Source: Macrostomum lignano (Eukaryota). Taken from it: DNA of 64,000 bases. Positions 3,801 to 58,566 of the stretch are shown here, one piece after another (within the stretch, counting starts at the first letter, position 1; each line of letters starts with the position of its first letter). The position numbers and the translations under genes are program-made. A model generated the notes under the pieces. That model searched no databases. It had not been told where the DNA came from and saw only the letters and a program-made list of their open reading frames with translations. The stretch is from NCBI GenBank assembly GCA_002269645.1, contig NIVC01001698.1:124001-188000 (forward strand), read 5' to 3'.

Positions 3801-6800
3801 GTTGTTGTATTCTACCCTACTGAGGTTATATTCTACCCTGCTGTAGTTATATTCTACCCTACCGTGGTTAAATTCTACTATGGGTATATTCGACCCTACT
3901 AATGCACAATACTGATTCCCCAAACCCGGCCGCAGCGCGACTACCCCAAGTACTTCACATTCCGGTGCCGCGACGGCTACGCGGAGGACGTGGTGTACCG
4001 GCACCTCGAGCCGGCCCTGGCCTTCCAGCTGGAGATCAACAGGCTGCGCAACTTTGAGCTGGAGACGCTAGACGTGCCGAACCACCGGATGCACCTGTAC
4101 CTGGCCAAGGCCCAGCAGGTGGCCAGCGCCTTCCCCGTCACCGACTATCGGTTCTTCGCCCGCTGCATCATCCGGCACGCCGACCTGGTGACCAAGGAGG
4201 CCTCGTTTGACTATTTGAAGCACGAGGCCGAGAGAGTCATTTTGGAGGCCTTGGACTCCATCGAGCTGGCCTTCGGCACGAACCCGGACGCGCAGCGCAC
4301 CGACTGCAACCACATCTTCATCAACTTCGTGCCGACCCTCACCCTGACGGACATGAAGCAGCTGGAGGACACGGTGCTGCGCATGGTGTACCGCTACGGC
4401 GACAGGTTCTGGAAGCTGCGCATCCTGCAGGCCGAGATCAAGCTGTGCGTCAGGGAGTCGCCGACCGGCCGCGGCAGCCCCATCCGCATCGTGCTGTCCA
4501 ACGAGTCCGGCGTCAGCCTGGCCTACCACGTCTACAACGAGGTGACGGACTCCAAGACCGGCCAGACGATTTTCTCCGCTCATGAGTCGGCCAGCTCGCC
4601 GGGCCCTCTGCAGAACATGTCGCTCAATACGCCCTACCAGACCAAGGACCATATGCAGGTGAAGCGGTCTCTGGCTAACAACTTCGGCACTACCTATGTG
4701 TACGACTTTCCGGATCTGTTTATGCAGGTGAGCAAGTCGCATTCTATGATGTAATACTCCTATTCTGATTCTGAGCAGGTGTGTGCACTAGTCTACATCT
4801 CTTACCCATCCCTTCCGCAGGCGCTGCAAACCGCCTGGACGTCGGCGGCCCTGTCGCCGCCGCAGGAGCTGCTGCAGTGCCGCGAGCTGGTGCTCAGCAC
4901 CGACGGCCAGCTGGTCGAGCAGAACCGGCCGCGCGGCTCCAACGACATCGGCATGGTCGCCTGGGAGATGCGCGCCAAGACGCCGCAGTATCCGGACGGC
5001 CGCCGCTTCATTGTCATCGCCAACGACATCACCCATCTGGTGGGCAGCTTTGGCGTCAAGGAGGACCAGCTGTACCACCGGGCCTCTGAGCGGGCGCGCC
5101 GGCTGCGTGTGCCCCGGATTTACCTGGCCGCCAACAGCGGCGCTCGCATCGGCCTGTCCGAGGAGGTCCGGCGCAGCTTCCGAGTGGCTTGGGAGGATCC
5201 CGCCGATCCACACTCCGGAGTCAAGTAAGATTTCGGTTTCTGTGCCGCGTAGCAACCGCCCTCTACCTGCCATAGCAGCCACCTCGCCAGGTACATACCT
5301 GTTCCAGGTACCTGAAGTTCACGCGGCAACCCCTCACTTTACAGCCAGATCACATAGCAACCACTCCTACCGTACAGGTACCCGAATGTCACAGCAACCA
5401 CTCCCACCCTGCAGGTACCCGAATGTCACATAGCAACCACTCCCACCCTGCAGGTACCCGAATGTCACATAGCAACCACTCCTACCCTACAGGTACCCGA
5501 TTGTCACATAGCAACCACTCCTACCCTACAGGTACCCGAATGTCACATAGCAACCACTCCTACCCTACAGGTACCCGAATGTCACATAGCAACCACTCCC
5601 ACCCTGCAGGTACCTGTACCTCACTCCGGAGGACTACAAGCGCCTGTCGCCCTACGTCGCTTGTCAGTTGGTCGAAGAGGCCGGCGAGAGTCGCTACCGA
5701 CTGTCCGACATCTACGGCAAAGAGACCGGCTTGGGCGTTGAGAACCTGCGCGGCAGCGGTCTTATCGCCGGCGAGACGTCGCGCGCCTACAACGAAGTGG
5801 TGACCATGTCGCTGGTCACCTGCCGCTCTATTGGCATCGGCGCCTACGTTGTCCGTCTGGGCCAGCGGGTCGTTCAGCGGGAGAATTCCCACATCATTCT
5901 GACTGGAGCGCAGGCGCTCAACAAACTACTCGGTCGGGAGGTGCGTCTATCGGGCTCTCTGAATTGTTTGCATTGTCACTTGGGGTCATTGTCACTTGAT
6001 TAGGTTCACTGGAGTCCTTGGGGACTGAAGTTGAGAAGGGTCCCATGAGAACAGCGGTTGATGGGAGTCACTGAGAGATTTGGGGTCACTGAAAGATTTA
6101 GGGTCACTGAAAGATTTGGGGTCACTGTAAGATTTGGGGTCACTGAAAGATTTGGGGTCACTGTAAGATTTGGGGTCACTGTAAGATTCGGGGTCACTGA
6201 AGTATTTGGGGTCACTGAAAGATTTGGGGTCACTGAGAGATTTGGGGTCACTGAATGGTTCGTATTCCACTGAACAGCTGAGCGCCACGAAATCCAGATC
6301 ACTTCTTTTTTTCAAATTTCACCTACATAGTCAAATTTATCATGTAGAATTGCATAATGCATTGCAAAACCCGATTTCGCAGGTGTACACCTCGTCCGAC
6401 CAGCTGGGCGGCCCCCAGATTATGGGCACCAACGGCGTCAGTCACCAGGTGGTCTCCAGCGACCTGGATGGAGTTCGCACCCTGCTCAAGTGGCTCTCCT
6501 ACATCCCGGCCACCAAGGACTCACCGCTGCCGGTCTACCTGGCCAGCCCGCCCGACCCCATCGAGCGGCCGGTGGGATTCGATCCCTCCCCAACGCCCTA
6601 CGATCCCCGCCTGATGCTGCGCGCCTTCTTTGACGCCGGCTCGTTCAACGAGATCCTTGAGCACTGGGGCGCCACCGTGGTCTGCGGCCGCGCCCGCCTC
6701 GGCGGCATCCCCTGCGGCGCTGTGGCCGTGGAGACTCGCACAGTGGAGGTGCAAATGCCGGCCGACCCGGCCAATCCCGAGTCGGACGCTCGCACCACCT

Positions 6801-39400: not shown

Positions 39401-41070
39401 GACTCCAGCATCATCCTGTCCCAGACTCCAGCATCATCCTGTCCCAGACTCCAGCATCATCCTGTCCCAGACTCCAGCATCATCCAGTCCCAGACTCCAG
39501 CATCTCACGCGGCATCCCGTCGCTCCTTCTGCAGCAGGTGGGGAGGCCGCAGTCGGCGCTGGCGCCCACGCTGTACAAGACGTCGATATGGACGTCGCTG
39601 AGGTGCAAAATTCGAAGCCTTGGCGCACCCGACTTTGGTGGCAAAATCGGCTTCACTGGCGGCTTGGGATTTGGCGGCAGGCTGATGTTCCAGAAGTAGT
39701 CGAACTGCGGAATTGAAGCGTTGGAGCAGCCGGCGCCCAAGTACTGGCCGCAGACATCGTCGGGGTCCAGGTAGACATGATCCAGGGCGTACATGAACAT
39801 CGGCTGGGGTGTCAGTGAGAGTGAGTTAGTCAGTGAGTCAGTCAGTGAGAGTGAGAGCTAGTGAGTCAGTCAGTGAGAGTGAGCTAGTCAGTGAGAGTGA
39901 GTCAGTCAGTGAGAGTGAGTCAGTCAGTGAGAGTGAGTCAGTCAGTGAGAGTGAGTCAGTCAGAGAGAGTGAGTCAGTCAGTGAGAGTGAGTCAGTCAGT
40001 GAGAGTGAGTCAGTCAGTGAGAGTGAGTCAGTCAGTGAGAGTGAGTCAGTCAGCGAGAGTGAGTCAGTCAGTGAGAGTGAGTCAGTCAGTGAGAGTGAGT
40101 CAGTCAGTGAGAGTGAGTCAGTCAGTGAGAGTGAGTCAGTCAGCGAGAGTGAGTCAGTCAGTGAGAGTGAGTCAGTCAGTGAGAGTGAGTCAGTCAGTGA
40201 GAGTGAGTCAGTCAGTGAGAGTGAGTCAGTCAGAGAGAGTGAGTCAGTCAGTGAGAGTGAGTCAGTCAGTGAGAGTGAGTCAGTCAGTGAGAGTGAGTCA
40301 GTCAGTGAGAGTGAGTCAGTCAGCGAGAGTGAGTCAGTCAGTGAGAGTGAGTCAGTCAGTGAGAGTGAGTCAGTCAGTGAGAGTGAGTCAGTCAGTGAGA
40401 GTGAGTCAGTCAGTGAGGTTCGGGGCTCACCTGCCACAATTTCACGACTCCATCGCACACCTGAGGCGCCTCCTTGTAGCTGTATAGGCAGATTATTCGA
40501 GCCACTTCTGGCACGAGGCTGTTTTCTGAAACAGTGGCGAGTTATGGAGAATGAGTCTGGGGTAGCCTGAGGAATGGAGTCTGATGTAGTCCTTGGAGTG
40601 GAGGCTGAGGTGGAGGCTGAGGTAGGCTCTGGTGTAGATTAGCTGGTAGGGCGTGCAGTGGAGGCTGTGGTAGGCTCTGGGAGTAGAGTATGTGGTAGGG
40701 CGTGCAGTGGAGGCTGTGGTAGGCTCTGGGAGTAGAGTATGTGGTAGGGCGTGCAGTGGAGACTGTGGTAGGCTCTGGGAGTAGAGTATGTGGTAGGGCG
40801 TGCAGTGGAGGCTGTGGTAGGCTCTGGGAGTAGAGTATGTGGTAGGGCGTGCAGTGGAGGCTGGTAAGGTGAGGCGGGTCGAGCAGCTGAGCTCTCCAAC
40901 TCACTCCCTTCATCCAACAGCCGACGCGCCAGAGCCACGCCAGTCTTGCAGACGTCGCACTCGAGGTTGACGCTGACGGCGCGGTCACTTTGAAACCGCA
41001 GTGGCGCCGAAAGTGCGGCGGCTATGGCCAGCGTGACGCAGACTCCGCTTAGCAACCAGTGACGCCTCAT
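33401..41070 (-). CDS. SMPD1: Acid sphingomyelinase (sphingomyelin phosphodiesterase), 12 exons, about 561 aa
   Basis: Exons 41070-40905, 40525-40431, 39803-39509, 38145-38045, 37749-37580, 37503-37393, 36028-35948, 35859-35695, 35229-35043, 33863-33765, 33684-33590, 33521-33401; phases consistent (donor at 37392 least certain). Signal peptide, saposin-B Cys pattern, Pro-rich linker, and metallophosphoesterase motifs [32 protein letters not shown]. Confidence 0.96.
33880..34919. repeat. Intronic minisatellite, 25 bp unit GGGTGGGTGAG(G/A)GTTGCTTGGGTCA
   Basis: About 41 copies abutting the acceptor at 33864. Confidence 0.96.
35256..35597. repeat. Intronic minisatellite, about 16 bp unit GGGAATCCATGCCTTG
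   Basis: Array in SMPD1 intron 35694-35230. Confidence 0.93.
36050..37290. repeat. Intronic minisatellite, 15 bp unit GAGGTGAGAGTC(G/A)GA
   Basis: Array in SMPD1 intron 37392-36029. Confidence 0.96.
37861..37978. repeat. Short intronic tandem repeat, about 34 bp x3 (GCTGTGTCCTCCCACTGAATGAGTTTGAG)
   Basis: In SMPD1 intron 38044-37750. Confidence 0.85.
38370..38648. repeat. Intronic minisatellite, 12 bp unit GCCTATGCCACT
   Basis: In SMPD1 intron 39508-38146. Confidence 0.95.
38770..39503. repeat. Intronic minisatellite, 23 bp unit CCAGACTCCAGCATCATCCAGTC
   Basis: Starts within about 5 nt of the donor at 39508. Confidence 0.95.
39813..40416. repeat. Intronic minisatellite, 18 bp unit AGTGAGTCAGTCAGTGAG
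   Basis: Fills almost all of SMPD1 intron 40430-39804. Confidence 0.96.
40650..40862. repeat. Intronic minisatellite, 49 bp unit
   Basis: About 4 copies (GGGCGTGCAGTGGAGGCTGTGGTAGGCTCTGGGAGTAGAGTATGTGGTA) in SMPD1 intron 1. Confidence 0.92.
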
Positions 41071-41329
41071 CCCGTATTGCTTACTGAAGATTTTTTGTTA
41101 TAGAGCTCTGCCTATGTAAACTGGTCAACGCTGATCTGAGTTTTTGCGCTTACCAGCTGCTCTGACTCAAAACAGCTCAGTTATAGCAGCCTGGCTGCTA
41201 TCTAGCTCTGGCCACGAACATAAATGCAGAGATTAGACTCTACCGGGCGAGTGCAGAAATGCAACGAGTTGGGGCCCTGGGTTGAACTTGCGCTTTTTAG
41301 GCTGTGCATACCTGAGTTTTTCTTGCCTG

Positions 41330-41700
41330 AACATGTGAACACTGAGTAGAATGACATGTGAACACTGAGTAGAATGACATGTGAACACTGAGTAGAATGA
41401 CATGTGAGCACTGAGCAGAATGACATGTGAACACTGAGTAGAATGACATGTGAACACTGAGTAGAATGACATATGAGCATTGAGCAGAATGACATGTGAA
41501 CACTGAGCAGAATGACATGTGAATACTGAGCAGAATGACATGTGAACACTGAGCAGAATGACATGTGAATACTGAGCAGAATGACATGTGAACACTGAGC
41601 AGAATGACAAGTGAACACTGAGCAGAATGACATATGAGCATTGAGCAGAATGACATGTGAACACTGAGCGGAATGACAAGTGAACACTGAGCAGAACGAT
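41330..41700. repeat. Minisatellite, 23 bp unit GAACACTGAG(T/C)AGAATGACATGT
   Basis: Direct reading; upstream of the SMPD1 ATG. Confidence 0.94.
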
Positions 41701-42192
41701 ATGAACAATATATATCTGCTCTGTACACTCTACACTCGATATATGAGCACACAATCCATAATCAGTTAGGATTTGTATACCAAAAACAGCAAAACAAAAA
41801 AGCTAATTGGAAGTTCGTGTAAGTTTTATTTCGGAAGCAATTGCTCCCTGTACACATCAAGTGCTGGAAAGCGCACAAGTAAAGCTAGCTGTGTTTATTG
41901 CAAGTCGCGGCATCAGGCAAAGTCTCGCTTGAAGCAGAAATTCTGCAACCACCTTGCTGCATCGCTTTATTGCTGTCCATTGTCGGATATTTGGGCTTTC
42001 TGTGCTACAGCTTTCTGTACTGCCAGCTGCTTTATAAAGCCATTGAACTGTGTGGGGTCAGTGCGCTACCTCCTAAATCCCATTATTCCTTTATCTAATC
42101 CCCTCTCTTCCCTGATTCCTTCCTTACAAGAAGGAAGAAATGTCCAGCTCCTTTCTTCCTAACCCTTCCTTCCTTCATTGCGTCTTTTTCTT

Positions 42193-42790
42193 TCCTGACA
42201 ATTTCATTGCTTCCTGACAATTTCATTCCTTCCTGGCAATTTTATTGCTTCCTGACAATTTCATTGCTTCCTGACAATTTCATTGCTTCCTGACAAGTTC
42301 ATTGCTTCCTGACAATCTCATTGCTTCCTGGCAATTTTATTCCTTCCTGACAATCTCATTCCTTCCTGACAATCTCATTGCTTCCTGACAGTTTCATTGC
42401 TTCCTGACAAGTTTACTACTTCTCTACAAGTTAATTCCTCCCTGACAATTTCATTGCTTCCTGACAATTTCATTCCTTCCTGGCAATTTTATTGCTTCCT
42501 GACAATTTCATTGCTTCCTGACAATTTCATTGCTTCCTGACAAGTTCATTGCTTCCTGACAATTTCATTCCTTCCTGGCAATTTTATTCCTTCCTGACAA
42601 TCTCATTCCTTCCTGACAATCTCATTGCTTCCTGACAGTTTCATTGCTTCCTGACAAGTTTACTACTTCTCTACAAGTTAATTCCTCCCTGACAATTTCA
42701 TTCCTTCCTGACAATTTCATTCCTACCTGACAATGTCATTTCTCCCTGACAATTTCATTCCTTTCTGACAATTTCATTCCTTTCTGACAG
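42193..42790. repeat. Minisatellite, 18 bp unit TTCCTGACAATTTCATTG
   Basis: Direct reading. Confidence 0.93.
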
Positions 42791-43837
42791 TTTCCCTCAT
42801 TCCTGCTCACTTTATTCACTTATGCTTGAAACTCCTCGCATTGATTCCTTGCTGATACATTCATTTCATCCCCGGCTATTCAATCCTTTCTGACCATCCA
42901 TTCATCACTAACGCTCGTGTTTTTGATTGCGAAGGCCTCTCTGACACTGCATGCAGTCGCACTGGGAGCAATCAATTCTGTTTTCATCGCAGATTGTGCG
43001 CAATACTTCATAGCGCAGTGTAAAATAGGCTTTTGTCTTGAAGTCCTGCGAACCAGACAAAACAGCCGAAGCCGGCCCTGAAGGACAAGCTGACGACATT
43101 TCTGCACAGCCGCCTCCCCGCGCCTGACGCGGGGCTGGGAAAGTCCTGAAGAAGAACAACAGGCAGCGGAAGACAGATGCGACCGGGAAATGGGCGGTTG
43201 GCGGCAGGCACGCAAGACATCCGATAAAATTTCAAGTTTAAAGTTTCTGCGCTTGAAGTATATAGTGTACTCGTATATGAAGTACATGAAGCATATTGAC
43301 TTATATAGTTTTTATTTATTTGATCAAAAGTACCAGAAAACATCATTTTCATACAGCAGTAAAGGACACTAATTAATAGTTATTGAAACTTTAGTGCTAA
43401 TAACAAAGGTGAAAAGAGCACTAAGTACACCAATAAGCCTGCAATATTAACTCAAAGAAGCTAAAGAAGGCAATCGAGCAAGCTCTAATAATTACAGTGT
43501 CGCATTGCACCGTTTCGACATTCGATTAAAACTATTGATTATTGATATTGATTGATATCAATATTGATATTGATTAGAAGCTTACACTGCGGCAGTAGTG
43601 GGGGCGGATTAAAGATTTATTGCATTATTTGTACGGTAGTCAAGGCCCTGCGCTGATAACGGAAGTGCATCCTGATCGGTTCTACTTTTATCACTTTACA
43701 CTCGGGGCTTGAATTCAGTCTCAGTGTTGGGTGAACTGCGTGCCGCTTTCGAAAATGTCTGGAGCGCTTTTCGACCCACTTTTGGTTAAATCTCTGGTGT
43801 TTTTCCTAGAAAGCCGAGTGCAGCCTGCGCTCGATCC

Positions 43838-44350
43838 TCAGCACTTGAATATCGGCTTCACCAGCTCGGCGTTGACGTCGGTGACGCTGAAGAAGGCGGC
43901 GACAACTGAGTTCACGTCGGCCTGGCCGCGAGAGCAGGCGGTCTGGGCCACGCTGAGCAGCAGCAGCTGCGAGAAGCTCACGTTCGCCTGCTTCGAGGAG
44001 GCGCCCGGCGGGCAGACGAAACCGAAAAAGTCGGCGCAGGCGCCGCCACCGCCACCGCCGCCGCCTCCGAGGCCGACTGTGACGGGGAAGGTGCGGTTCC
44101 GCAGCGCCTGGCAGGGGCCGCGCAGGCCAGCAGACCGGCCGGGGACCAGCGGGCAGCCGAACGGGCTGTTGTCATCGTCATCGGAAGCCTGCAGCTTCGT
44201 GTGCGTGTGTAGGCCGGTGACCACGATCAGCGCCACCAGCACCAGGCAGAGGCAGACGCTGAGGATGCACACCACGGGCGAACACTGGTTCTGCCGACTC
44301 TCCACCTCCTCGACTGTGGCTTCCGACGGCTTCTGTTGCTGATCCACCAT
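43838..44350 (-). CDS. Short type II membrane protein (170 aa) with a neprilysin/M13-like N-terminal Cys motif; apparently truncated
   Basis: Short cytosolic N-terminus, hydrophobic anchor (VVCILSVCLCLVLVALIVVTGL), then C..C and ACADFFGFVC resembling M13 PCxDFYxYAC; GC-rich codons; AATAAA about 220 nt downstream. Confidence 0.5.
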   Translation of the reverse strand: MVDQQQKPSEATVEEVESRQNQCSPVVCILSVCLCLVLVALIVVTGLHTHTKLQASDDDDNSPFGCPLVPGRSAGLRGPCQALRNRTFPVTVGLGGGGGGGGGACADFFGFVCPPGASSKQANVSFSQLLLLSVAQTACSRGQADVNSVVAAFFSVTDVNAELVKPIFKC

Positions 44351-45736: not shown

Positions 45737-46757
45737 TGCAACAGTTGCCTATTATTTTGCCTACTTTGCCTATTTTTGTCTATTTTGTCTACTGATTTCA
45801 CGTATAATACGACTATTTTTTTATATTCGATTGAAGAATTCTGTGCCTAATAAATATATGTTTTTAATATTGTTAAGTAGTAAAATAGCATCAATAGTAG
45901 CTTTTAGCCTAATTCTGTATGTTTAATTAGTTTTAATACGTACGCCATTTTTGCCTGTAATACTATAAAAGAGAGAGAGAAAAATAAACGAAGGAGAACT
46001 TGCGCTCGTTGGTTTCCTCCGCCTGCCAATTTTAGACTCCGGTCTTGGCCCCAGCGGTTGTAATTGTTCCAAAAATAGATCTGAATTGGTCTTAGTCATT
46101 TAAAGGCGCTCCGCCTTCCCTCTCCCACGGAGCTTCGTACAGCCAGAAGCGTACAGGCCTCCTTTCCCCACTCTCCCCAGGACGTGCAGTCCTACCCCAA
46201 GCCGCTCCCCTTTCCTCCTCTTTCCCAGAGAATATACGCCCCGCCCCTCAATCCTCTCCCCTCTTTGTGGACATTCTGTCTGCACAGGTGTACAGCCTTA
46301 TTCCCTCGGACTTACAGTCTGATCCTCCCCCAAGCATCCCCGCTCCCGACCCTTCCTAGTAGAAATTTCCCACATTCATTAGGCAGATTGCCTTCTTATC
46401 TAATGCTGTCAGCATTCCCTATTAGTATTTAGAAGTTCCCATTAGTGTGCTTTCCCAGGCAACTCTGATCCATCGCGAAGCCCTTAATTCCCCTCTCCCA
46501 TCTTTATTCCCTCGGACTAGTTAAGTTTAATTTAGACAGTGTCTTGCCGCTCGGACACTCACGCCACCAGGAGCAACCATTGGCTTACTCCTATTAGTAA
46601 TAAAACTAGCACATCTATCAGAAATCCCCAAGAATCCCATAACTTACCCTACAACAAATTTGGTGTCAGCAATAGGAAACTTCCCTCCCCCAAGACCCCT
46701 ATAACAGATTTTGGTAACAGCGGTGGGATTTTCTTAAAAATAAACAGCCCTGTAACA
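45737..46757 (+). repeat. 5' LTR (1021 bp)
   Basis: No differences seen by eye versus 54164-55184 (offset 8427); TATAAAA at 45964 and AATAAA at 45983. Confidence 0.96.
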
Positions 46758-46761
46758 AATT

Positions 46762-46774
46762 TGGTGGCAGCGGT
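46762..46774 (+). promoter_or_regulatory. Primer-binding site complementary to the 3' end of tRNA-Leu
   Basis: TGGTGGCAGCGGT, 4 nt after the LTR end; complement of ...ACCGCTGCCACCA-3' (tRNA-Leu end recalled from vertebrate tRNAs). Confidence 0.8.
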
Positions 46775-46840
46775 AAAGGATCAGAATCTGGAGAAACGCG
46801 CAACCCCAGCCTAATTTCCCATCCCAATCCCTGAAGTATA

Positions 46841-47806
46841 ATGGCCGCAGGAATCAATGAAGCCCTTGCGCTCTTAGCCGAAGAGCTCCGCAACCGACTC
46901 GAATTAGGCCCCCTTAGACATGTGAAAATCCAGAAATACCTCCCCAGCCAAGATATCAGAATCTGGCTTACCGCATTTGACCAAAGATGTGAAAATGAAG
47001 GAATAGATGAGGAAAACCGAAAGCAGGAATTATTGACCAACTTAGATCTAAGCACTGCGTTTGCAGCAGTTCAACGCCTCAACCTCCCAGCTAATCTCCC
47101 CTATGAAGAATTCAAAGAGAGACTGATCGAAAGATTTGGAAAAGTAGGTAGCTCCGCCGAATTTCGCGAAGAGTTTAGGAATCGCTGCCAAGGCAGAAAC
47201 GAATCCACTGACAGCTTTGCCGATGCCCTGATCGAATTAGCCTCCCGCGCATTCCTGAACATGGATGCTGAGCAGAGAGAGGAAGAACTGGTTGAGCAGT
47301 TCATTAAAGGTGTGAGAACCCCTCCCGACACCCGTGAAAAGCTAATCTTTGCCCAACCTGCTAGTCTCCAAGCCGCCCGCAGAATGCTGCGCAGAATTGA
47401 AGCTGCTTACCAGATGTCCCATAAAGGTGGAATCCGAGTAACTAAGGAAGAAAAAGAGGAGTATAAAGGCAGAACTGACCAGTTGATCATCAATCAGCAG
47501 AACCAGATTGATCGCCAAGAACGAGTCATCCAGGACTTAAAGAAGCAGCTAGCAGCGCAAAGCGCTCCGCCACCCCAAGCCTATCCCCAGCAACAGTATA
47601 GACAGCCACCCCCTCAGCAGTATAGACTGCCACCTCCTCAGCAGTACAGACCGCAACCCCAGCAGCAGTTCAGACAGCCACCCCAGCTGATGAACCAACC
47701 ACCAAGGCGTGAACCCCCAAGAAGGAATGAGCGTCAGCCCCCCAATCCCAGATATGAGCCGCTGAAGTTCCGTAACCCCCGTGACTCCCAGAAGTCGGGA
47801 AACTGA
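46841..47806 (+). CDS. gag: Retrotransposon Gag (321 aa)
   Basis: ORF right after the PBS; WLTAFDQRC, F..R.Q...ES...F...L..LA..AF and L.EQFI.G capsid-like motifs; Gln/Pro-rich tail. Confidence 0.9.
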   Translation: MAAGINEALALLAEELRNRLELGPLRHVKIQKYLPSQDIRIWLTAFDQRCENEGIDEENRKQELLTNLDLSTAFAAVQRLNLPANLPYEEFKERLIERFGKVGSSAEFREEFRNRCQGRNESTDSFADALIELASRAFLNMDAEQREEELVEQFIKGVRTPPDTREKLIFAQPASLQAARRMLRRIEAAYQMSHKGGIRVTKEEKEEYKGRTDQLIINQQNQIDRQERVIQDLKKQLAAQSAPPPQAYPQQQYRQPPPQQYRLPPPQQYRPQPQQQFRQPPQLMNQPPRREPPRRNERQPPNPRYEPLKFRNPRDSQKSGN

Positions 47807-50800
47807 GAAGCCAGGGTCGAGTTAAGAGGCCACGCCCCTCAGGCCAAAATATTGCTTACTCTCCGGCCTCCCCATCATTCGAAAATGCCCCCCAACCAAA
47901 ATACCGGCAACCTCCCCAGTACGGTTTCCGCTATCCCCGCAAAACCTCCCATGTACAGCCAATGCCTGTAAATAATGCGATATCTGTCTCCCCCAATAAT
48001 TTTTCACTTCTTACCTTTGATGATGCCGACGATGCTATGCCAAATGCCCCCCATGACCCTCATGTGTACAATTCCCCCCATGCGACCGCCTCTCATGTAA
48101 CCAATGCGACCAAAGCTTATGTACATCATGCGTCCGCACCCCGTGTACCCACTGCGCTTGCACCCCATGTACCCCATGCGAGTGAAACCAATAATGCTCT
48201 ATCCAGTGCTGAAACCCGCTCAAAGAAGCGACAAAAGCCAAAAACCAATTCCCCATCTCGAATCGACCTGACCAAGCTAGAAGGCTATGAAGCTGTAATA
48301 GTCGGCGATATCCAGAAAGAATCGATTAATTTCTTGCTAGACACAGGCGCCAGAAATAACTTCCTGAGCCGCTCAACCTGGTCTAAGCTATTCCGTGCCG
48401 ATCAAATCCGAGACACTAGCAAAAGCATCAGTACATTTGACGGTACCCCAGTACAATTAGAAGGAGAAGTATCTGCCCAAGTGAAGTTTGGCGATATCCA
48501 AATCGAAGTAGACTTCCTCCTATGCCGACACGATTGCGATAATATCTTAGGAATGGAATTTTTCCTGTCCCAATGTGAAAGCATTCAGCTAGCCAAAGGA
48601 ATGCTAGTGCTTAATGAAGGTACCTGTATACCCATGCAGTATACCCGCCTACCCGTGAAAGTTTGTCGAGTTTATACTCAAGAAAGAGTAATCATCCCAG
48701 CTAATAGTGCCCTCCGAATACCCGTGAAGTTAGCCAAGAATTGTGAATCGAATTATGGCACCCCCATGACCATTGAAGCCATTGGCGATACTGTCCGAAC
48801 CCGAGATTTCTCCCTAGAAATGGTTCCAACCCTAGTAACCATGAAAGAAGGCAAAGGAATTGTCGAGATTATTAATCGTCACCCAGTAGATGTGAACCTA
48901 ACCAAAACTTCCCTAATTGGCTTAGCCAGACCCATGAAAGCTAAAGACTTAACCTATTGGCAAACCCAACCCCCCAGTTCCCAACTCCCTGCGAAAGTCA
49001 ACCAGACTCAATGTACTGAAGATTCCTGGATTAATGAAGTGAGCCTTGGCCCTGAATTGTCAGATGAACAGCGAAAAGCAGTCATCGACTTAATGAAAGA
49101 AAACCGTGAAGCCTTTTCCCAGAATGAATTAGACATGGGCCTGACACATTTAGTAACCCACGAAATCTCTATCAAAGACCCCACCCCCGTTAGAATCCCA
49201 GCTAGACGCATCCCCCCACACTTGCAGAAGCAAGTTGATGCCCAATTAGACGATATGTTAGCCAAAAACTTAATTAGACCCTGCTACTCAACCTATTCCA
49301 CCCCCCTAGTAATTGTCCCCAAGAAAGACGGTTCTATCAGAATCGTGAGCGATTTCCGAGTGCTCAACTCAAGAGTTAATTATTACCCCTACCCCCTCCC
49401 CAATATCCAAGAGACCTTCTCCCACCTGACTGGTAGCCAATACTTTAGCAGCCTTGATTTAAACTCAGGATACTGGCAAGTCCCCATCAAAGAAGAAGAC
49501 AAGCATCGAACCGCCTTCTCCACCCTAACTAGAGGCCAATTTGAATATCAAGTGATGGCCCAAGGACTTTCCAATGCCCCCGGAACCTTCCAACGCCTGA
49601 TGAATTTAGTACTATTAGGAATCCAACACAAGTTCGCCATGTCCTATATCGATGACATAATAGCCTACTCCCAAACTTTTGCCGACCATTTAGAGCACTT
49701 AAGAGAAGTATTTAAGCGACTTATTGCCGCAGGTCTGAAGTTGAGACCCAAAAAGTGCAATCTTTTCCATCACGAGTTGAAATATCTAGGACACGTGATT
49801 GGCCGAAAAGGCATCAGAACAGATGAAGCCAAAATAGAAGCTATCAAAACTTGGCCCCGTCCCAAAGACGTAAAGGAACTACGCAGTTTTCTTGGCCTAT
49901 GCAATTATTATTGCCGATTCGTGAAGAATTATGCCGAAGTGGCTCACCCCCTATTCCAATTGACTCGAAAAGGAGTTCAGAATTTCCAATCTAAGTGGAG
50001 CAAAGTGCATGACGAAGCCTTTGAATCCCTGAAGCAGCGCATGATGTCTACTGAAGTGTTAGCCTACCCCGAATATGTCGAAGATGAAAATGTGAAAATG
50101 GTGCTCGACACAGATGCCAGTGACGACAGGATTGGCGCATGCCTTGGCCAAATCCAGAGTGATGGCATAGAGCGACCAATAGCCTATTTTAGTAGAGCAA
50201 TGAAAGAATCTGAGAAGCGATACCCCATTACCCGGAAAGAATTGTTAGCCCTTGTCGACGCTATGAGGCATTTCAGATTTTATCTGATCGGCAAGAAATT
50301 CTTAGCCCGAACTGATCATAAAGCGATAATTTGGCTCATGAGACAAACTGAAGCAACCGGAATCCTAGGTAGATGGATAGAGCGTCTGAATGAATTCAGG
50401 TTCGACATTGAACACAGAAGCGGCGCAAAACATTCCAATGCCGATGGATTGTCGAGAAGACCAGCTGAGATAGCTGAAGCCCCTGAAGTATCCCCTGAAG
50501 CAGCCCCTGAACTTGCTGGAACAGCACCTGAAGTTTCCGAAGTCCCTGACGCAGCCACTGAGCCTGCTGAAGCGATCCTTGAAACCCCTGAAGTACCTGA
50601 AGCGATTCCTGAGAAAATTGAGCCAATCCCTGAGAAAGTTGAGAAGTTGACCCCTGTTCCCCTGAGAGATGAGAGTGCTCCCGCTGAAACTAAGGACAAC
50701 CCCATGTCCCAGTCACCTGAAGCTCTGATAGAAAGCGAGACCCAGCTTGAATATCCCGAATCTAGGATACAGCTGAATGTCTCAGGTAGAGAAGTAGAAT

Positions 50801-52614
50801 CAGAAGAAGAGACAGGAAAGTGTGAGAAACTATTAACTGATTACCTCCCCAACCCCCTGAAGAAAGAACAGATTGAAGAAGCCCAAGCTGCTGATCCCAT
50901 CATTAAAGCCCTGCTAGAAGCCAAGAAACAGAAATTGAGCCAATTTCCCAAATCACCGGACGTGCCAGAAAAGATCAGTAAGCATTATGCACTGATGAAA
51001 ATCGATAACGAATTATTAATAATCACCGAAGGCGAAAAGGACAAAGTAGTTTTGCCCCCATCCTTAGATAAAGCAGTCTTTATTGACCTTCACTGCAGCC
51101 CCCTCGCAGGACATCTAGGAAGAGATAAAACGCTCCAAAGAATCAGAGAAAGATTTTGGCGACCCGGACTGAGCACTGCAGTTGAGCAGCTAATTGCTGA
51201 GTGCATCCCCTGCCTTGAGAGCAAGAAAGGACATTTTGTTCAGGCCCCAGTCCAGTCATTCCCCATTGGTGAAGCATTTAGCCGCCTGCATATAGACATT
51301 ATCGGCCCAATATCTAAAGAAAGCAAACGAGGCCATAAATATGTCCTGACAGTTGTTGACAGCACAACTAGATATCCCTTCGCTTTTCCCATTAGAAACC
51401 AAAAGTCAGACACAGTTATTAAGATACTACTTGAACGGATAGTAGCAGAATATGGACAGCCCACCTGGATCCACACAGACAATGGAAAAACTTTCGCTAG
51501 TAAACAATTTAGAGCTTTTTGCGAACTTTATAATATTCGCCACACCTTCACTACCCCCTATCATGCCCAATCTAATGGCTTAGTAGAACGGTTTAATAAG
51601 CAAGTCAAGTCAATCATCACCTGTCTGATCAATAAGGATCATGGTGATTGGGATTTACTAATTCCCGCAGCTCTAGTAGCAGTCCGCACCAGCCCCAATT
51701 CAACCACAGGTTTTTCCCCTCACTTCCTATTATTTGGCAGAGAAGCCACCTTACCTCTAGACACTCAGATCAGAAGTACAGCAGAACACGCTGATTATCC
51801 CGCCTACATTACTAAGCATGCCGAAAGATTAGAGGAAGCTCATAAGATAGTCAAGAAGAAGTTGGAAAAAGTAGTAGAGAAAAGACAAGTCGCCGCTGAA
51901 ACTAACAAGTTACCCCCTAGAATCCCTATAGGTTGCCTTGCACTGATTAATAACCCCCAGCTAGATAGCGAAGAATCCCACAAGTTCCACCGAAAGAAGA
52001 GATCCGCCTTTAGAGTTTTAGCCCAATTATCAGAAGTGGTTTTCAAAGTCCAGAAAGAAGAAGAAGGAGAATTAGTAGGGAAAGAAATGCTCGTGCATCG
52101 AGATAACCTAACTCCAGTCCCGAACTCAACCCCAGAACAAATCACTAAGGAAGGCCAGCGAGATGCCCCTGATTCCGCCCCTGTTCCCATCCCCACTTCC
52201 GCTAAACCTAAGAGACAACCTGTAATTAAGGAAGGCCAACCCAGCCGAAATTCCCAAAAATTAATCTTGCCCGAACCAGTTGAATCTGAAGAAGAATCCG
52301 ATGAAGAAGAAATTAATTGGAGATGCCAAATTAGAGAAGCAGAGAACGAAGAGTTAGAAGAGGAAATCCAGCCAGAAGAATGGAGTGAAGCCCAAACAGA
52401 GGAAGAGAATGAAATGACCGATGAGTCAGAGAGTGAGGCTCCAAACGAAGAGATCCCTCAGCCCCAACCCCCCTCTCCTGCCCCGCGAGATCCCGAACCC
52501 CCGCGTCGTCACCCCTACAATTTAAGGCCCCCACCCCAAAATAAACAGCGTTGCAATTGTCATCTAGACAGACTACTATTAGCACTAAACCTCTTGCGCA
52601 ACTTAGAATTTTAG
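47800..52614 (+). CDS. pol: Pol polyprotein (protease, RT, RNase H, integrase), probably reached by -1 frameshift
   Basis: LLDTGA (protease), LDLNSGYWQ and YIDDI (RT), LDTDASD (RNase H), H..GH..C..C, LHIDIIGP, HTDNG and NGLVERFN (integrase). The frame is open from the slippery site at 47797 to the stop at 52614. Confidence 0.96.
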   Translation, partial: KLRSQGRVKRPRPSGQNIAYSPASPSFENAPQPKYRQPPQYGFRYPRKTSHVQPMPVNNAISVSPNNFSLLTFDDADDAMPNAPHDPHVYNSPHATASHVTNATKAYVHHASAPRVPTALAPHVPHASETNNALSSAETRSKKRQKPKTNSPSRIDLTKLEGYEAVIVGDIQKESINFLLDTGARNNFLSRSTWSKLFRADQIRDTSKSISTFDGTPVQLEGEVSAQVKFGDIQIEVDFLLCRHDCDNILGMEFFLSQCESIQLAKGMLVLNEGTCIPMQYTRLPVKVCRVYTQERVIIPANSALRIPVKLAKNCESNYGTPMTIEAIGDTVRTRDFSLEMVPTLVTMKEGKGIVEIINRHPVDVNLTKTSLIGLARPMKAKDLTYWQTQPPSSQLPAKVNQTQCTEDSWINEVSLGPELSDEQRKAVIDLMKENREAFSQNELDMGLTHLVTHEISIKDPTPVRIPARRIPPHLQKQVDAQLDDMLAKNLIRPCYSTYSTPLVIVPKKDGSIRIVSDFRVLNSRVNYYPYPLPNIQETFSHLTGSQYFSSLDLNSGYWQVPIKEEDKHRTAFSTLTRGQFEYQVMAQGLSNAPGTFQRLMNLVLLGIQHKFAMSYIDDIIAYSQTFADHLEHLREVFKRLIAAGLKLRPKKCNLFHHELKYLGHVIGRKGIRTDEAKIEAIKTWPRPKDVKELRSFLGLCNYYCRFVKNYAEVAHPLFQLTRKGVQNFQSKWSKVHDEAFESLKQRMMSTEVLAYPEYVEDENVKMVLDTDASDDRIGACLGQIQSDGIERPIAYFSRAMKESEKRYPITRKELLALVDAMRHFRFYLIGKKFLARTDHKAIIWLMRQTEATGILGRWIERLNEFRFDIEHRSGAKHSNADGLSRRPAEIAEAPEVSPEAAPELAGTAPEVSEVPDAATEPAEAILETPEVPEAIPEKIEPIPEKVEKLTPVPLRDESAPAETKDNPMSQSPEALIESETQLEYPESRIQLNVSGREVESEEETGKCEKLLTDYLPNPLKKEQIEEAQAADPIIKALLEAKKQKLSQFPKSPDVPEKISKHYALMKIDNELLIITEGEKDKVVLPPSLDKAVFIDLHCSPLAGHLGRDKTLQRIRERFWRPGLSTAVEQLIAECIPCLESKKGHFVQAPVQSFPIGEAFSRLHIDIIGPISKESKRGHKYVLTVVDSTTRYPFAFPIRNQKSDTVIKILLERIVAEYGQPTWIHTDNGKTFASKQFRAFCELYNIRHTFTTPYHAQSNGLVERFNKQVKSIITCLINKDHGDWDLLIPAALVAVRTSPNSTTGFSPHFLLFGREATLPLDTQIRSTAEHADYPAYITKHAERLEEAHKIVKKKLEKVVEKRQVAAETNKLPPRIPIGCLALINNPQLDSEESHKFHRKKRSAFRVLAQLSEVVFKVQKEEEGELVGKEMLVHRDNLTPVPNSTPEQITKEGQRDAPDSAPVPIPTSAKPKRQPVIKEGQPSRNSQKLILPEPVESEEESDEEEINWRCQIREAENEELEEEIQPEEWSEAQTEEENEMTDESESEAPNEEIPQPQPPSPAPRDPEPPRRHPYNLRPPPQNKQRCNCHLDRLLLALNLLRNLEF

Positions 52615-52986
52615 CCCGTCTACACCTTCCTACCCCTCCCTCGCCGTCCCCATTCGCCCAACAGACCCCAAATTTTAGACAAAGAGAGCCCTCGACTAGA
52701 CCCTTGCTATGCACAAAGGACCCCTCAAATTATCGATCGACAAAGAAACTAGAGCCCAAAGAGCGTAGAAAAATGAGGTTGGTCACGAAAACAAGAGGAC
52801 CTCCCTTGTCTGTGAACAATAGTCAGTAAATATAAGCATTTTTAGGCCATTGCACAATCAGATCCCAAGCCTTCTGCTCTCCAAAATTCCCACTCCTCGC
52901 TAATTAATACTGTCGAGCCCGACTTTTAAATTTTTACTATCTGAGTGATCTTTATACCCTGCGCTGATTAGGCAATCAGATTCCCA

Positions 52987-54018
52987 ATGTATTCAGAAGA
53001 GAGTCTTAAGCAGCTGGAGGACGACCTTCGTCTCAGCGACTCTAATGACAGTGAGTTCGACGAGGAATCGGACAATGATTTGCCCATCCCTGAGCGCCAA
53101 CCCACAAGGCCAAGCAAGCCAGGTCCTAAGCCTCGCATTGCCTCAGTTGTGACTCGTCCGCCGCAGCCGTCCACCTCTGACGCGCACTCGTCGTCAGCTA
53201 TCTCAGATGCCCACCCGCCATCGGTTGCCCCTGATCGTCAATCGCCGATCACCAATCGCCAATCGCCGACCGATTCAGTTTCCCGTCGATCAGACGAGCG
53301 AGTTAAATTGCTCCGACGCCATGCTGATGCCCCTGTCAGCATCCCCCCGACCGCCATACAGCGCCAGCCCCCTGATGCCAGATCTGCTATCGTGTTAACG
53401 ACTAATGAAGCACCCCGGCCAGCCATCCGCCAGAGACTTGGGCCTCGCCCTTCATCAACATCGCAGAAGCATCGATCCCGATCCAGGTCTCCGCCTAAGC
53501 AGCAGCCCGAGCAACCATTAGTCACTCCGCCATCGACTTATGGGGTTCGACCGATGAACCAACCGCGTCCCCGCCCCGTCCCACCTATCAAGATGGAACC
53601 GTTGGACTCCAGCATACCACCTCTGATGGCTGGATTTGTGAGACAGGACCAACCCCTGCGGGAGATTGGCGAAAATTTTACGCAGGCCATCGAGAGTCTG
53701 CCAGAGGCCCAACGCGCCGATTATCGCCGTATGGTTACAGCGATCAAGCTGTATTTCATTCATGCTGGCCGATTCCGAGACGGCCGCGAATTCCCTCAAC
53801 GCGAGACGCTGCGGCCAGTGCTGCATAATCTTCGCCGTCTGCAGCCAATGCACGCTGTCGCCGCCTGGCGGCGTGCGGCCCACTACGCACTGACAGACCT
53901 CCGCCGAGGTCCGCGCCGCTACAATGCGCAAAGCTTGCAGATCGAGATTCGCTGGCTAGGCCGAGAATGCGGCTGGCCCCATCAGCATCGGCTGCCGAGC
54001 GAACTCAATTTGAATTAG
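52987..54018 (+). CDS. ORF3 of the Gypsy element, 343 aa, unknown function (no env hallmarks)
   Basis: Intact ATG-to-TAG ORF between pol and the 3' LTR; no signal peptide or TM segment; Pro/Ser/Arg-rich N-terminal two-thirds and a globular-looking C-terminal 120 aa. Confidence 0.8.
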   Translation: MYSEESLKQLEDDLRLSDSNDSEFDEESDNDLPIPERQPTRPSKPGPKPRIASVVTRPPQPSTSDAHSSSAISDAHPPSVAPDRQSPITNRQSPTDSVSRRSDERVKLLRRHADAPVSIPPTAIQRQPPDARSAIVLTTNEAPRPAIRQRLGPRPSSTSQKHRSRSRSPPKQQPEQPLVTPPSTYGVRPMNQPRPRPVPPIKMEPLDSSIPPLMAGFVRQDQPLREIGENFTQAIESLPEAQRADYRRMVTAIKLYFIHAGRFRDGREFPQRETLRPVLHNLRRLQPMHAVAAWRRAAHYALTDLRRGPRRYNAQSLQIEIRWLGRECGWPHQHRLPSELNLN

Positions 54019-54163
54019 TTATATCGCTGACGAACATTTATTCTGCAATTTTATTAACTTCCATTATTCTTGTTTATTAACTATTTTGTTCTATCATTGC
54101 TATTTTACGTATCGTTTTGAAAATTCTCACTATATTCAAATTTATCAAGCCAGGAAGGCCAGT

Positions 54164-55184
54164 TGCAACAGTTGCCTATTATTTTGCCTACTTTGCCTAT
54201 TTTTGTCTATTTTGTCTACTGATTTCACGTATAATACGACTATTTTTTTATATTCGATTGAAGAATTCTGTGCCTAATAAATATATGTTTTTAATATTGT
54301 TAAGTAGTAAAATAGCATCAATAGTAGCTTTTAGCCTAATTCTGTATGTTTAATTAGTTTTAATACGTACGCCATTTTTGCCTGTAATACTATAAAAGAG
54401 AGAGAGAAAAATAAACGAAGGAGAACTTGCGCTCGTTGGTTTCCTCCGCCTGCCAATTTTAGACTCCGGTCTTGGCCCCAGCGGTTGTAATTGTTCCAAA
54501 AATAGATCTGAATTGGTCTTAGTCATTTAAAGGCGCTCCGCCTTCCCTCTCCCACGGAGCTTCGTACAGCCAGAAGCGTACAGGCCTCCTTTCCCCACTC
54601 TCCCCAGGACGTGCAGTCCTACCCCAAGCCGCTCCCCTTTCCTCCTCTTTCCCAGAGAATATACGCCCCGCCCCTCAATCCTCTCCCCTCTTTGTGGACA
54701 TTCTGTCTGCACAGGTGTACAGCCTTATTCCCTCGGACTTACAGTCTGATCCTCCCCCAAGCATCCCCGCTCCCGACCCTTCCTAGTAGAAATTTCCCAC
54801 ATTCATTAGGCAGATTGCCTTCTTATCTAATGCTGTCAGCATTCCCTATTAGTATTTAGAAGTTCCCATTAGTGTGCTTTCCCAGGCAACTCTGATCCAT
54901 CGCGAAGCCCTTAATTCCCCTCTCCCATCTTTATTCCCTCGGACTAGTTAAGTTTAATTTAGACAGTGTCTTGCCGCTCGGACACTCACGCCACCAGGAG
55001 CAACCATTGGCTTACTCCTATTAGTAATAAAACTAGCACATCTATCAGAAATCCCCAAGAATCCCATAACTTACCCTACAACAAATTTGGTGTCAGCAAT
55101 AGGAAACTTCCCTCCCCCAAGACCCCTATAACAGATTTTGGTAACAGCGGTGGGATTTTCTTAAAAATAAACAGCCCTGTAACA
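54164..55184 (+). repeat. 3' LTR (1021 bp)
   Basis: Matches the 5' LTR; preceded by a weak purine-rich tract AAGCCAGGAAGG. Confidence 0.96.
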
Positions 55185-57026: not shown

Positions 57027-58566
57027 ATATTGATTTTGTCTTCAATGGTCAACTCCAACTGCTGCTTTGCTTTTGCTATCTGGGCCGTCTGCTGCCCACA
57101 TTGGCTGCTCGTGGCCAGCCTGCCACTGCCATTGCTGCTTCAAGAGCCCAGCAACAGCTGCACTCACTGGCCCTGCCGCCATTGCTTCAGCACCCTCTGC
57201 CTGGACCTTCGTCACTGCCTCTACAGCCGCTGCGTTGGCAGCAGTGCCGCTTGAAGTCCAGGCACTCCTCAACAAAGGGCCGGGCTGGCCACTCGCCTTC
57301 CAGTCAAGCAGCAACAGATGATGATGAGGAATCTGATGATGAGGATGAGGCTGGCAGCGATGCCGACACGGAGTTTGACGAACTGAGCGATCCGTTCTAT
57401 GCCAGCGATGTCAGCCTGTGCGACAAATTCAAGGTGTGCGCAGCATGTCTGTGGAGTTGGGATTGGGACAGCGGCTTGGTGGCGTCACTCACCATCGATT
57501 GGGATCTGAACTGCACCTTAGCATTAGACCGACTTTAATGTGCGGATGCCCCTGCTCTCATGTCATGCTCTGCAGTGTGCGGATGCCCCTGCTCTCATGA
57601 TATGCTCTGCAGTGTTCGGATGCCCCTGCTCTCATGTCATGCTCTGCAGTGTGCGGATGCCCCTGCTCTCATGATATGCTCTGCAGTGTTCGGATGCCCC
57701 TGCTCTCATGATATGCTCTGCAGTGTTCGGATGCCCCTGCTCTCATGTCATGCTCTGCAGTGTTCGGATGCCCCTGCTCTCATGTCATGCTCTGCAGTGT
57801 GCGGATGCCCCTGCTCTCATGATATGCTCTGCAGTGTTCGGATGCCCCTGCTCTCATGATATGCTCTGCAGTGTTCGGATGCCCCTGCTCTCATGTCATG
57901 CTCTGCAGTGTTCGGATGCCCCTGCTCTCATGTCATGCTCTGCAGTGTGCGGATGCCCCTGCTCTCATGTCATGCTCTGCAGTGTGCGGATGCCCCTGCT
58001 CTCATGTCATGCTCTGCAGTGTTCGGATGCCCCTGCTCTCATGTCATGCTCTGCAGTGTTCGGATGCCCCTGCTCTCATGTCATGCTCTGCAGTGTGCGG
58101 ATGCCCCTGCTCTCATGACATGCTCTGCAGTGTGCAGGTACTGGGGTATCTGCACTCTGAGGGGCCTGAGAGAGTGCTTCGGTGTGTACAAACACGCAAC
58201 GGTCTATGTTTAGCAGCCCTAAATCCCTCATACTAAATGGCCCGTTGCACCACTCCGCAGGTGCAGTCTTTCACCTGCAAAAGCCTGCGCGCAGCCAAGC
58301 TGGCCAGCTTAGGCACCGGCCTGTCCAAGTCCAAGGTGGACCAGCTCTGCCTGCTGGGCCGCATGTACATCAACGGGCAGAAGACTATAAAGAAAGGCGC
58401 CGCCTGCGGCATAGGCGACTCGGTGTCTATAGCGATGAGCTTTCAAGACGACCTGGCGATGGTGAAGCAGGTGCGGCTGCTGCACGGTCGGGTGCTGCCG
58501 ACTGGCAGCTACAGGATTGTGCTGCGCTGCTGGAAGCAGCCGTTCATGCTGCGGCTGGCCTCCTAG
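57027..58566 (+). CDS. MTRES1: Mitochondrial transcription rescue factor 1-like (C6orf203 family, S4-like RNA-binding domain); start codon unresolved
   Basis: Exon ending at 57433 (AAG|GT) spliced in phase 0 to 58261-58566. Presequence-like region, then acidic linker, then SLRAAKLASLGTGLSKSKVD...INGQK..KK...GDSV...YRIVLRCWK, resembling recalled MTRES1. Confidence 0.8.
57539..58131. repeat. Intronic minisatellite, 37 bp unit GTGCGGATGCCCCTGCTCTCATGTCATGCTCTGCAGT
   Basis: About 16 copies in intron 57434-58260. Confidence 0.95.

Follow-up and report, generated by a model that had tools for sequence, protein, structure and literature searches.

The third open reading frame (ORF3) of a young Ty3/Gypsy retrotransposon of Macrostomum lignano is a real and functional gene kept under purifying selection, and the protein it encodes may sustain transcription of the element as a nuclear activator or counter-silencing adaptor (we give this a probability of roughly 0.45), with a solitary relative at a host locus serving as a dominant-negative. 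We infer that an internal promoter separate from the LTR would drive ORF3 and that the protein would act in the nucleus, where its five-helix domain would bind either nucleic acid or a host factor of chromatin or silencing and its acidic helix would attract co-activators. Since such a promoter would not depend on the LTR, the protein could be produced before the LTR is active and then turn the LTR on, in the way known from foamy-virus Tas; the solitary protein, which consists of the domain alone, would be a brake on the element. The original prediction had listed nucleic-acid binding, silencing suppression and condensate scaffolding as candidate functions; a nuclear regulator or silencing antagonist is the predicted function that fits best.

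The element copy (hereafter the window copy) lies at 45737-55184 of the window, that is, of the whole 64-kb stretch of M. lignano DNA analysed (Table 1). It is complete and young, with identical 1021-bp LTRs. The pol order protease-RT-RNase H-integrase, the TG...CA ends of the LTRs, the primer-binding site (PBS), the polypurine tract (PPT) and the target duplication all identify it as Ty3/Gypsy. The PBS, TGGTGGCAGCGG, is presumably of the Leu-tRNA type. The end of the LTR contains two older PBS-like repeats (about 46660 and about 46712). Such extra repeats were seen at the LTR ends of the window copy (46654-46773 and 55082-55184) and of 12 of the 15 other elements checked, making two to four per element, a pattern that would fit a gradual shift of the LTR boundary across former primer sites. 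A second insertion (L091) carries an ORF3 identical to that of the window copy at a different target site. The named protein matches of the RT came from M. lignano, the nearest matches outside the RT clade being 47-51% identical, and a tree of 37 RT sequences, built without named Gypsy reference elements, recovered a host-specific clade with a support of 1.00. Elsewhere in the window, the element lies about 1.4 kb upstream of a 170-aa frame with a membrane segment (43838-44350, reverse strand), for which Pfam gave nothing clear and which we would read as the first exon of an M13-type peptidase, and tandem arrays with units of 18, 19, 23, 37, and 49 bp occupy 40000-42900 and 57390-58280.

Table 1. 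Features of the window copy, in window positions.
Feature	Position	Strand	Basis
5' LTR	45737..46757	+	1021 bp, TG...CA, same sequence as 3' LTR; 4-bp target duplication CAAG
Primer-binding site TGGTGGCAGCGG	46762..46773	+	From sequence
gag, 321 aa	46841..47806	+	Pfam Retrotrans_gag, E 0.0017, under curated cut-off
pol, 1550 aa, protease-RT-RNase H-integrase	47962..52614	+	ORF and Pfam
Predicted internal promoter of ORF3	52827..52864	+	TAAATATAAG box 52827, conserved TTGCACAA 52850, Inr-like TCAGATC 52858
Predicted 5' UTR of ORF3, no upstream ATG	52860..52986	+	Holds AGs at about 52970 and 52978
ORF3, 343 aa, accessory protein	52987..54018	+	ORF; purifying selection
Acidic N-terminal region, predicted helix at residues 4-15, activation-domain-like	52987..53076	+	Composition, pattern, model
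Linker motifs RxPTRP, helix 97-114, RLG, RSRSP	53095..53502	+	Alignment, model
Five-helix C-terminal domain, about residues 231-338	53677..54000	+	AlphaFold2 model, conservation
Polypurine tract	54152..54163	+	From sequence
3' LTR	54164..55184	+	Same sequence as 5' LTR

As predicted, a 343-aa sense frame occupies the env position, between the end of pol and the PPT with the 3' LTR. Disruption or neutral evolution in other copies had been proposed as a test of its function. A DNA search with ORF3 returned 22 matches including the window, seven of them with a full intact frame, and among six intact copies (the identical one left out) 12 diverged pairs gave dN/dS values of 0.045-0.161 at dS 0.55-3.0, far under 1; the linker alone gave 0.12-0.26. 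The C-terminal domain has at least 144 matches in the M. lignano genome (150 candidates scored), with 26-100% identity, and a search with a distant ORF3 member added 150 matches more or less overlapping the first set. Sixty regions were examined, picked for diversity and long open frames, so that rates of intactness among them are biased: 49 contain an ORF of at least 250 aa ending in the domain, and in 57 a gag or pol of the same clade lies upstream of ORF3, the exceptions being L059, L084, and L111.

The protein has a three-part architecture, namely an acidic N-terminus, a basic linker of variable length rich in Pro, Gln, Ala, and Ser, and a domain, likewise basic, some 110 residues long. 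The acidic start noticed originally is pronounced, the net charge over the first 30 residues being -10 in the window ORF3 and -7 to -11 in 49 of the 50 family proteins (the odd one out looks truncated). An acidic helix with a phi-x-x-phi-phi pattern was found in 16 of the 27 representatives and in the sister locus L143, the subclade of the window being without a match, and 13 of the 27 contain an activation-domain-like tile at the thresholds applied. The absence of a transmembrane segment was confirmed (maximum 19-residue Kyte-Doolittle mean 0.52 in the window ORF3 and at most 1.11 in all 50 family proteins), and that of a signal peptide is probable from the acidic, non-hydrophobic N-terminus. 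The Pro/Ser/Arg region, described originally as disordered, is indeed a basic linker with RSRSP, but motifs are conserved within it and a helix is predicted at residues 97-114. Kept across subfamilies are RxPTRP, whose T40 is invariant (30/30), a helix of the KRxxLLxxQA type and RxxSP sites; many representatives also carry basic clusters of the KRxR type. The C-terminal domain is basic and unrecognised, as had been said, with a pI of 10.9 over 118 residues (7.9-10.9 across the family) and no Pfam family.

AlphaFold2, given 24 domain sequences, returned an all-helical model of five helices (pLDDT 85, pTM 0.79), and the full-length model adds separate helices at residues 4-15 and 97-114. The comparison of this confident model by Foldseek, suggested at the outset, gave no fold match. 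No Pfam family rose above its cut-off in any of the 24 members, no relative was found by a single-sequence protein search, and no match was found among PDB sequences, by Foldseek in PDB and viral (BFVD) models, or at 0.9 or above in the ESM Atlas; the best Z in the VIA structure comparison, 6.7, is within the usual background. A profile search of longer proteins with the domain gave two matches, and one of 1.84 billion representative proteins gave seven, five from M. lignano, one a repeat protein taken as spurious, and one P0003, which has a 251-aa relative, P0008. P0003 aside, the protein searches found no relatives outside M. lignano records, and no cellular donor gene was found among the 1.84 billion proteins. 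The domain is likely an undescribed helical module, though blank searches do not prove a new fold. Three identities were considered and rejected: an errantiviral or retroviral Env (no membrane segment, an acidic N-terminus, no enrichment of acceptors before ORF3), a captured enzyme of the GDSL or DEDDy type (no Pfam enzyme domain in 24/24, an all-helical model), and a J-domain protein (no Pfam or fold match). Pfam, PDB and BFVD gave no fusion-protein family or fold match. The expectation of an undescribed, selected, non-env accessory protein was supported.

With its basic linker and domain, ORF3 could instead act on the element RNA, helping to export, stabilise or package it much as Rev/Rex or an SR-like protein would. 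The linker is rich in Pro, Arg, and Ser, RSRSP and RLG occur in the subclade of the window and in the sister loci L149 and L151, unspliced genomic RNA needs export, and the domain pI reaches 10.9. We consider this function unlikely, as the RS and RLG motifs are missing from most of the other subclade and the acidic N-terminus, the most constant feature outside the domain, would not be needed for it.

Related families carry a comparable module at the same place. In 17 of 20 regions from families with an RT 52-65% identical, the integrase is followed by a disordered region and a terminal domain-sized segment, either as a separate ORF just past the pol stop or, in 7 of the 20 loci, in frame with Pol. 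YTNCAG, the host trans-splice acceptor motif (PMC8629364), stands 7-30 nt before the module ATG in all 17 sister loci with an assignable start, a count that omits L154, L161, and L162, and a TATA box in none of the 17; among representatives the acceptor was found in 10/10, against 0.71 in shuffles (maximum 5 in 5000). In the in-frame cases, whose starts were picked by eye (for L157, where the Met chosen first had no acceptor, the Met aligning with L152 was taken instead), it lies 7 nt before an internal Met in 7/7 tested, so separate production of the module, in addition to its fusion with Pol, is probable. The sister domains are under purifying selection (pS 0.64-0.84, pN 0.10-0.41). The modules of L143-L147 are likely homologous to ORF3 (hhalign E 0.0016, probability 16; HMM E 0.004; a shared acidic helix), and homology of the others is possible (hhalign E 0.036, with short motifs shared by L149 and L151). 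On the RT tree the promoter clade (1.00) is sister to the acceptor families (0.74), all within the host clade (1.00); the two groups being sisters, the tree does not give the order of events. The modules of L152-L158 carry motifs of the VIDLT and CQT[DE] types, which to us resemble SUMO- and LC8-binding motifs, respectively; the former, as SUMO-interaction-like motifs, count toward the adaptor reading. Farther away, five Pol proteins of other animals (P0048, P0051, P0085, P0102, P0113; RT 47-48% identical) have a Met-led module behind the integrase tail. The module contains an acidic stretch and C2H2-finger-like segments that Pfam scored below cut-off, and in four of these proteins it also has RxxTxP. 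Judged from sequence, these modules are an analogous accessory module in the slot of ORF3. That of P0102 begins MARTKS, which we take to be like the histone H3 tail.

The position in frame with Pol and C-terminal to the integrase in 7/20 sister loci, together with the C2H2-finger extensions at the same place in distant Pol proteins of other animals, could mean that the module is an integrase cofactor or a targeting domain, steering the integration complex or accompanying it. This is rather unlikely: the acceptor precedes an internal Met in 7/7 in-frame cases, elements without pol carry the module, the in-frame domains are weakly homologous to ORF3 (hhalign E 0.036), and ORF3 alleles vary widely on near-identical integrases.

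The variation of ORF3 is indeed deep. In pairs of elements with close RT (pS 0.04-0.33, pN at most 0.011), the ORF3 domain mostly gave pS 0.6-0.8 and pN 0.08-0.44, which indicates ORF3 cassettes much older than the pol that carries them and spread by recombination. Some swaps left the promoter and U3 unchanged, as between the window copy and L088 (U3 0.99, ORF3 pN 0.11) and between L098 and L110 (U3 0.99, ORF3 pN 0.24). At depth, ORF3 tracks the RT family (Spearman 0.88), and some ORF3-U3 linkage is expected anyway from their adjacency. Cognate co-evolution of ORF3 and U3 was not supported, different alleles being found on one U3, and no motif common to the ORF3 promoter and its own U3 stood out in a comparison made with no control set. 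The swapping of alleles over one U3 favours a host protein as partner over a strict DNA-binding code for the cognate LTR. Among the U3 regions compared (L063-L112 and the subclade that includes the window copy), one subclade has TTTGTTTTAA boxes repeated ahead of the LTR TATA and the other a CGCCATTTT box, presumably YY1-like.

Fifteen of the 60 regions are elements without pol, about 5 kb long and with near-identical LTRs (L075, L076, L078-L080, L093, L094, L096, L097, L099, L102, L104-L106, L108), which form an old lineage. These satellites encode a Gag of 190-197 aa that ends in a zinc-knuckle-like segment and shares 32-47% identity with the window Gag; non-coding DNA comes next and then ORF3, intact in 12 of the 15. 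The mini-Gag gave a dN/dS of 0.06-0.16 where dS could be estimated (8 sequences). In the five tested, the 3' part was 93-98% identical to an autonomous partner, indicating that satellites take ORF3 and LTR from their helpers; its renewal by recombination may be the sole reason why ORF3 is present in them. L097 contains an inserted 701-aa ORF (4612-6717), probably another transposon. TR-GAG elements are non-autonomous LTR elements of plants with a gag frame and no pol, and the satellites share their LTRs, gag frame and lack of pol but differ in a shortened, separately evolving Gag and in an ORF3 from the 3' end of the helper.

The domain also exists as a solitary gene, BOX15_Mlig026206, a gene model of 118 aa comprising the domain alone. 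It was found at three loci (L113-L115:1501-1857; G000 C846, C3012, and C2203) whose flanks align at about 92-98% over kilobases, which makes it a single insertion present as three allelic or homeologous copies. In the 10 kb to each side no gag or pol match was found, and in the filtered list of DNA matches at these loci the ORF3 promoter of L080/L107 is the only one internal to an element. The gene keeps the conserved promoter block, TATATATA and an Inr-like TCATTC, with AATAAA downstream, and lacks both the acidic helix and the linker as well as the GWP segment at the end; against element copies it shows pN 0.40-0.50 and pS 0.66-0.79. Its frame is open in all three copies, in which four of the six variable coding sites are synonymous, too few to prove selection. 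Promoter block and domain have thus persisted here away from an LTR, and what was lost is the predicted activator part. The solitary gene is a candidate domesticated inhibitor, which would act as a dominant-negative. It sits upstream of a cystatin-like frame. Four gene ids were absent from the expression supplements of PMC12801592, PMC7806878, PMC12896417, and PMC5730564.

The many old alleles on one pol background, the 15 pol-less partners that carry ORF3 beside a selected mini-Gag, and the host-locus derivative would also suit a specificity factor in conflicts between elements (copy number, exclusion, or toxin/antidote addiction) with alleles under frequency dependence. We hold such a role to be about as improbable as one with the integrase, since no second, linked toxin or antidote gene was found and an arms race with the host predicts the same patterns.

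In the clade of the window, ORF3 is probably made from an internal promoter. This prediction draws on the enrichment of TATA boxes: a strict box lies 50-200 nt upstream of ORF3 in 12 of the 27 representatives, against 1.9 in shuffles (maximum 6 in 300), and a looser pattern, chosen after seeing the sequences, in 18 of the 27 against 5.8 (maximum 14), the representatives being related and their promoter and acceptor counts therefore not independent. It is tempered by the TATAAG variant of the window, which counts only under the looser pattern, and by the nine of 27 representatives without a TATA-like box under either. The predicted start, at about 52860, is 29 nt from TATAAG; this box and TCAGATC at 52858, which we read as Inr-like, are kept in L086-L088, and the predicted promoter begins at 52827, close to the left edge (52830) of the region first singled out. 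Repeated AGCCAAT boxes lie upstream of ORF3 in several representatives, and a GATGCGGTCCAG block is conserved ahead of the TATA in one subclade. In L076-L083, L103, L105, and L112, CCTAGCAAC is followed by a CCAAT box, an arrangement that we take to resemble an RFX/NF-Y pair.

The original prediction had ORF3 of the window element expressed, like env, from a spliced message using AG 52970 or 52978; such a route, whether by cis-splicing or by a spliced leader, is distinctly improbable. The sequences pointed out, GCTAAT (52899), CTGAT (52964) and the two AGs, are all there, and the window, L086, L087, and L088 all retain a TCAG at 7-11 nt ahead of the ATG, three of these four also having an upstream CTGAT. 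Trans-splicing of a leader affects about 30% of host genes (PMC8629364), so an internal promoter combined with trans-splicing is possible, and the sister families have an acceptor signal. However, neither AG fits YTNCAG and this motif does not occur in 52615-52990; the supposed pyrimidine-rich stretch has pyrimidines at only 8/12 and 5/12 upstream bases; and no AG occurs in the 80 nt or so before the ATG in L055, L057, and L061. Nor is the clade enriched, YTNCAG lying within 45 nt of the ATG in one of the 27 representatives (1.9 in shuffles) and a looser pyrimidine-tract rule finding seven (6.5 in shuffles), and no GTRAG donor was found between the LTR TATA and gag of the window copy. An env-like spliced mRNA thus survives as a sequence signal in the sister families, at 17/17 loci, and gives way in the window element to a signal of the TATA/Inr type. 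Contigs of seven runs guessed to be RNA have no joint or loose end at 52970 or 52978, and contig X6 bridges 52709-53028 without a gap; DNA or genomic RNA would look the same, so this coverage gives no evidence either way. In run X4, a contig from an L087-type copy, starting near 52850, has about 17 foreign letters joined near the predicted start, which were not in the genome and did not match the published leader.

The original prediction was right that ORF3 is richer in CpG than gag-pol (CpG o/e 1.08 versus 0.63 for gag and pol), but recent capture, which it took from this, is not supported, as synonymous sites are saturated, no cellular donor was found, and high CpG with CGN-arginine is common to all 23 elements measured, reflecting present codon use. 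That ORF3 is a recently captured, non-functional passenger, as its GC and CpG above gag-pol and the 15 of 22 DNA matches without a full intact frame might suggest, is refuted by a dN/dS far under 1 at saturated dS; it also occupies the same slot across RT families, and no cellular source was found among the proteins searched.

For a nuclear activator or counter-silencing adaptor speak the combination of an acidic helix, a motif-rich linker and a basic domain, a predicted promoter separate from the LTR, a diversity like that of an arms race, and a solitary copy without the acidic part. Against it, the modelled fold points to no function, and the window's subclade does not match the phi-x-x-phi-phi pattern.

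The foamy-virus protein Tas (Bel1) joins an acidic activation-type segment to a folded domain. ORF3 is similar in adjoining the 3' LTR, in its predicted LTR-independent promoter and in its acidic segment and folded domain, but belongs to a Gypsy retrotransposon without env, has its acidic part at the N-terminus and has alleles that swap over one U3; no homology to Tas was found in Pfam or BFVD. Tas is described as transcribed from an internal promoter and as activating both this promoter and the LTR (PMC8003144). The Ty3/Gypsy elements Tor3b and Tor4b of Oikopleura express a third ORF from a promoter after pol and related elements use splicing (PMC4402516), a division between promoter and splice modes that parallels the signals predicted in M. 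lignano, whereas the ORF3 of Tor is a membrane Env and that of M. lignano is without a hydrophobic segment. VANC, an anti-silencing protein of the Arabidopsis VANDAL transposons, also diverges fast between related families (PMC5735166); like ORF3 it is a transposon-encoded accessory protein, but it comes from a plant DNA transposon and acts on DNA methylation through tandem target motifs, and we found no homology between the two and no match of allele to target at U3. Extra non-Env ORFs conserved between pol and the 3' LTR are likewise reported from bdelloid LTR retrotransposons, as GDSL esterases and DEDDy exonucleases (PMC5408684), and from plant LTR elements (PMC7264820); unlike the captured bdelloid enzymes, ORF3 has no Pfam family and has pol-less carriers and a host-locus derivative. 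Platyhelminth errantiviruses are described with an Env of the gB type and another gene order (PMC13524379). Non-env third ORFs are hence of a known kind, and what appears to be new is this ORF3 family, its allele series, the satellites and the solitary gene. In the literature found, the family, the domain, the split between promoter and acceptor, the satellites and the solitary gene did not appear, and the main text of a study of the LTR elements of this host does not use the word 'ORF' (PMC12801592); an earlier study of host LTR elements or a Repbase-type annotation might describe ORF3.

Clear cases of elements with their own activators or silencing antagonists are the complex retroviruses and plant DNA transposons; ORF3 would be a candidate from an animal retrotransposon, and it comes with an allele series, two predicted expression modes in sister lineages, satellites and a truncated host-locus copy. 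Transgenesis, RNAi, and a working LTR reporter are described for M. lignano (PMC12801592), which makes the activator question directly testable in the host. In its widest form, which is tentative and somewhat doubtful, the finding would mean that a clade of animal Gypsy elements has turned into a 'complex' retroelement, with a nuclear activator or anti-silencer of new fold driven by an internal promoter, old arms-race alleles, mini-Gag satellites, and a docking domain that the host may have tamed as a dominant-negative.
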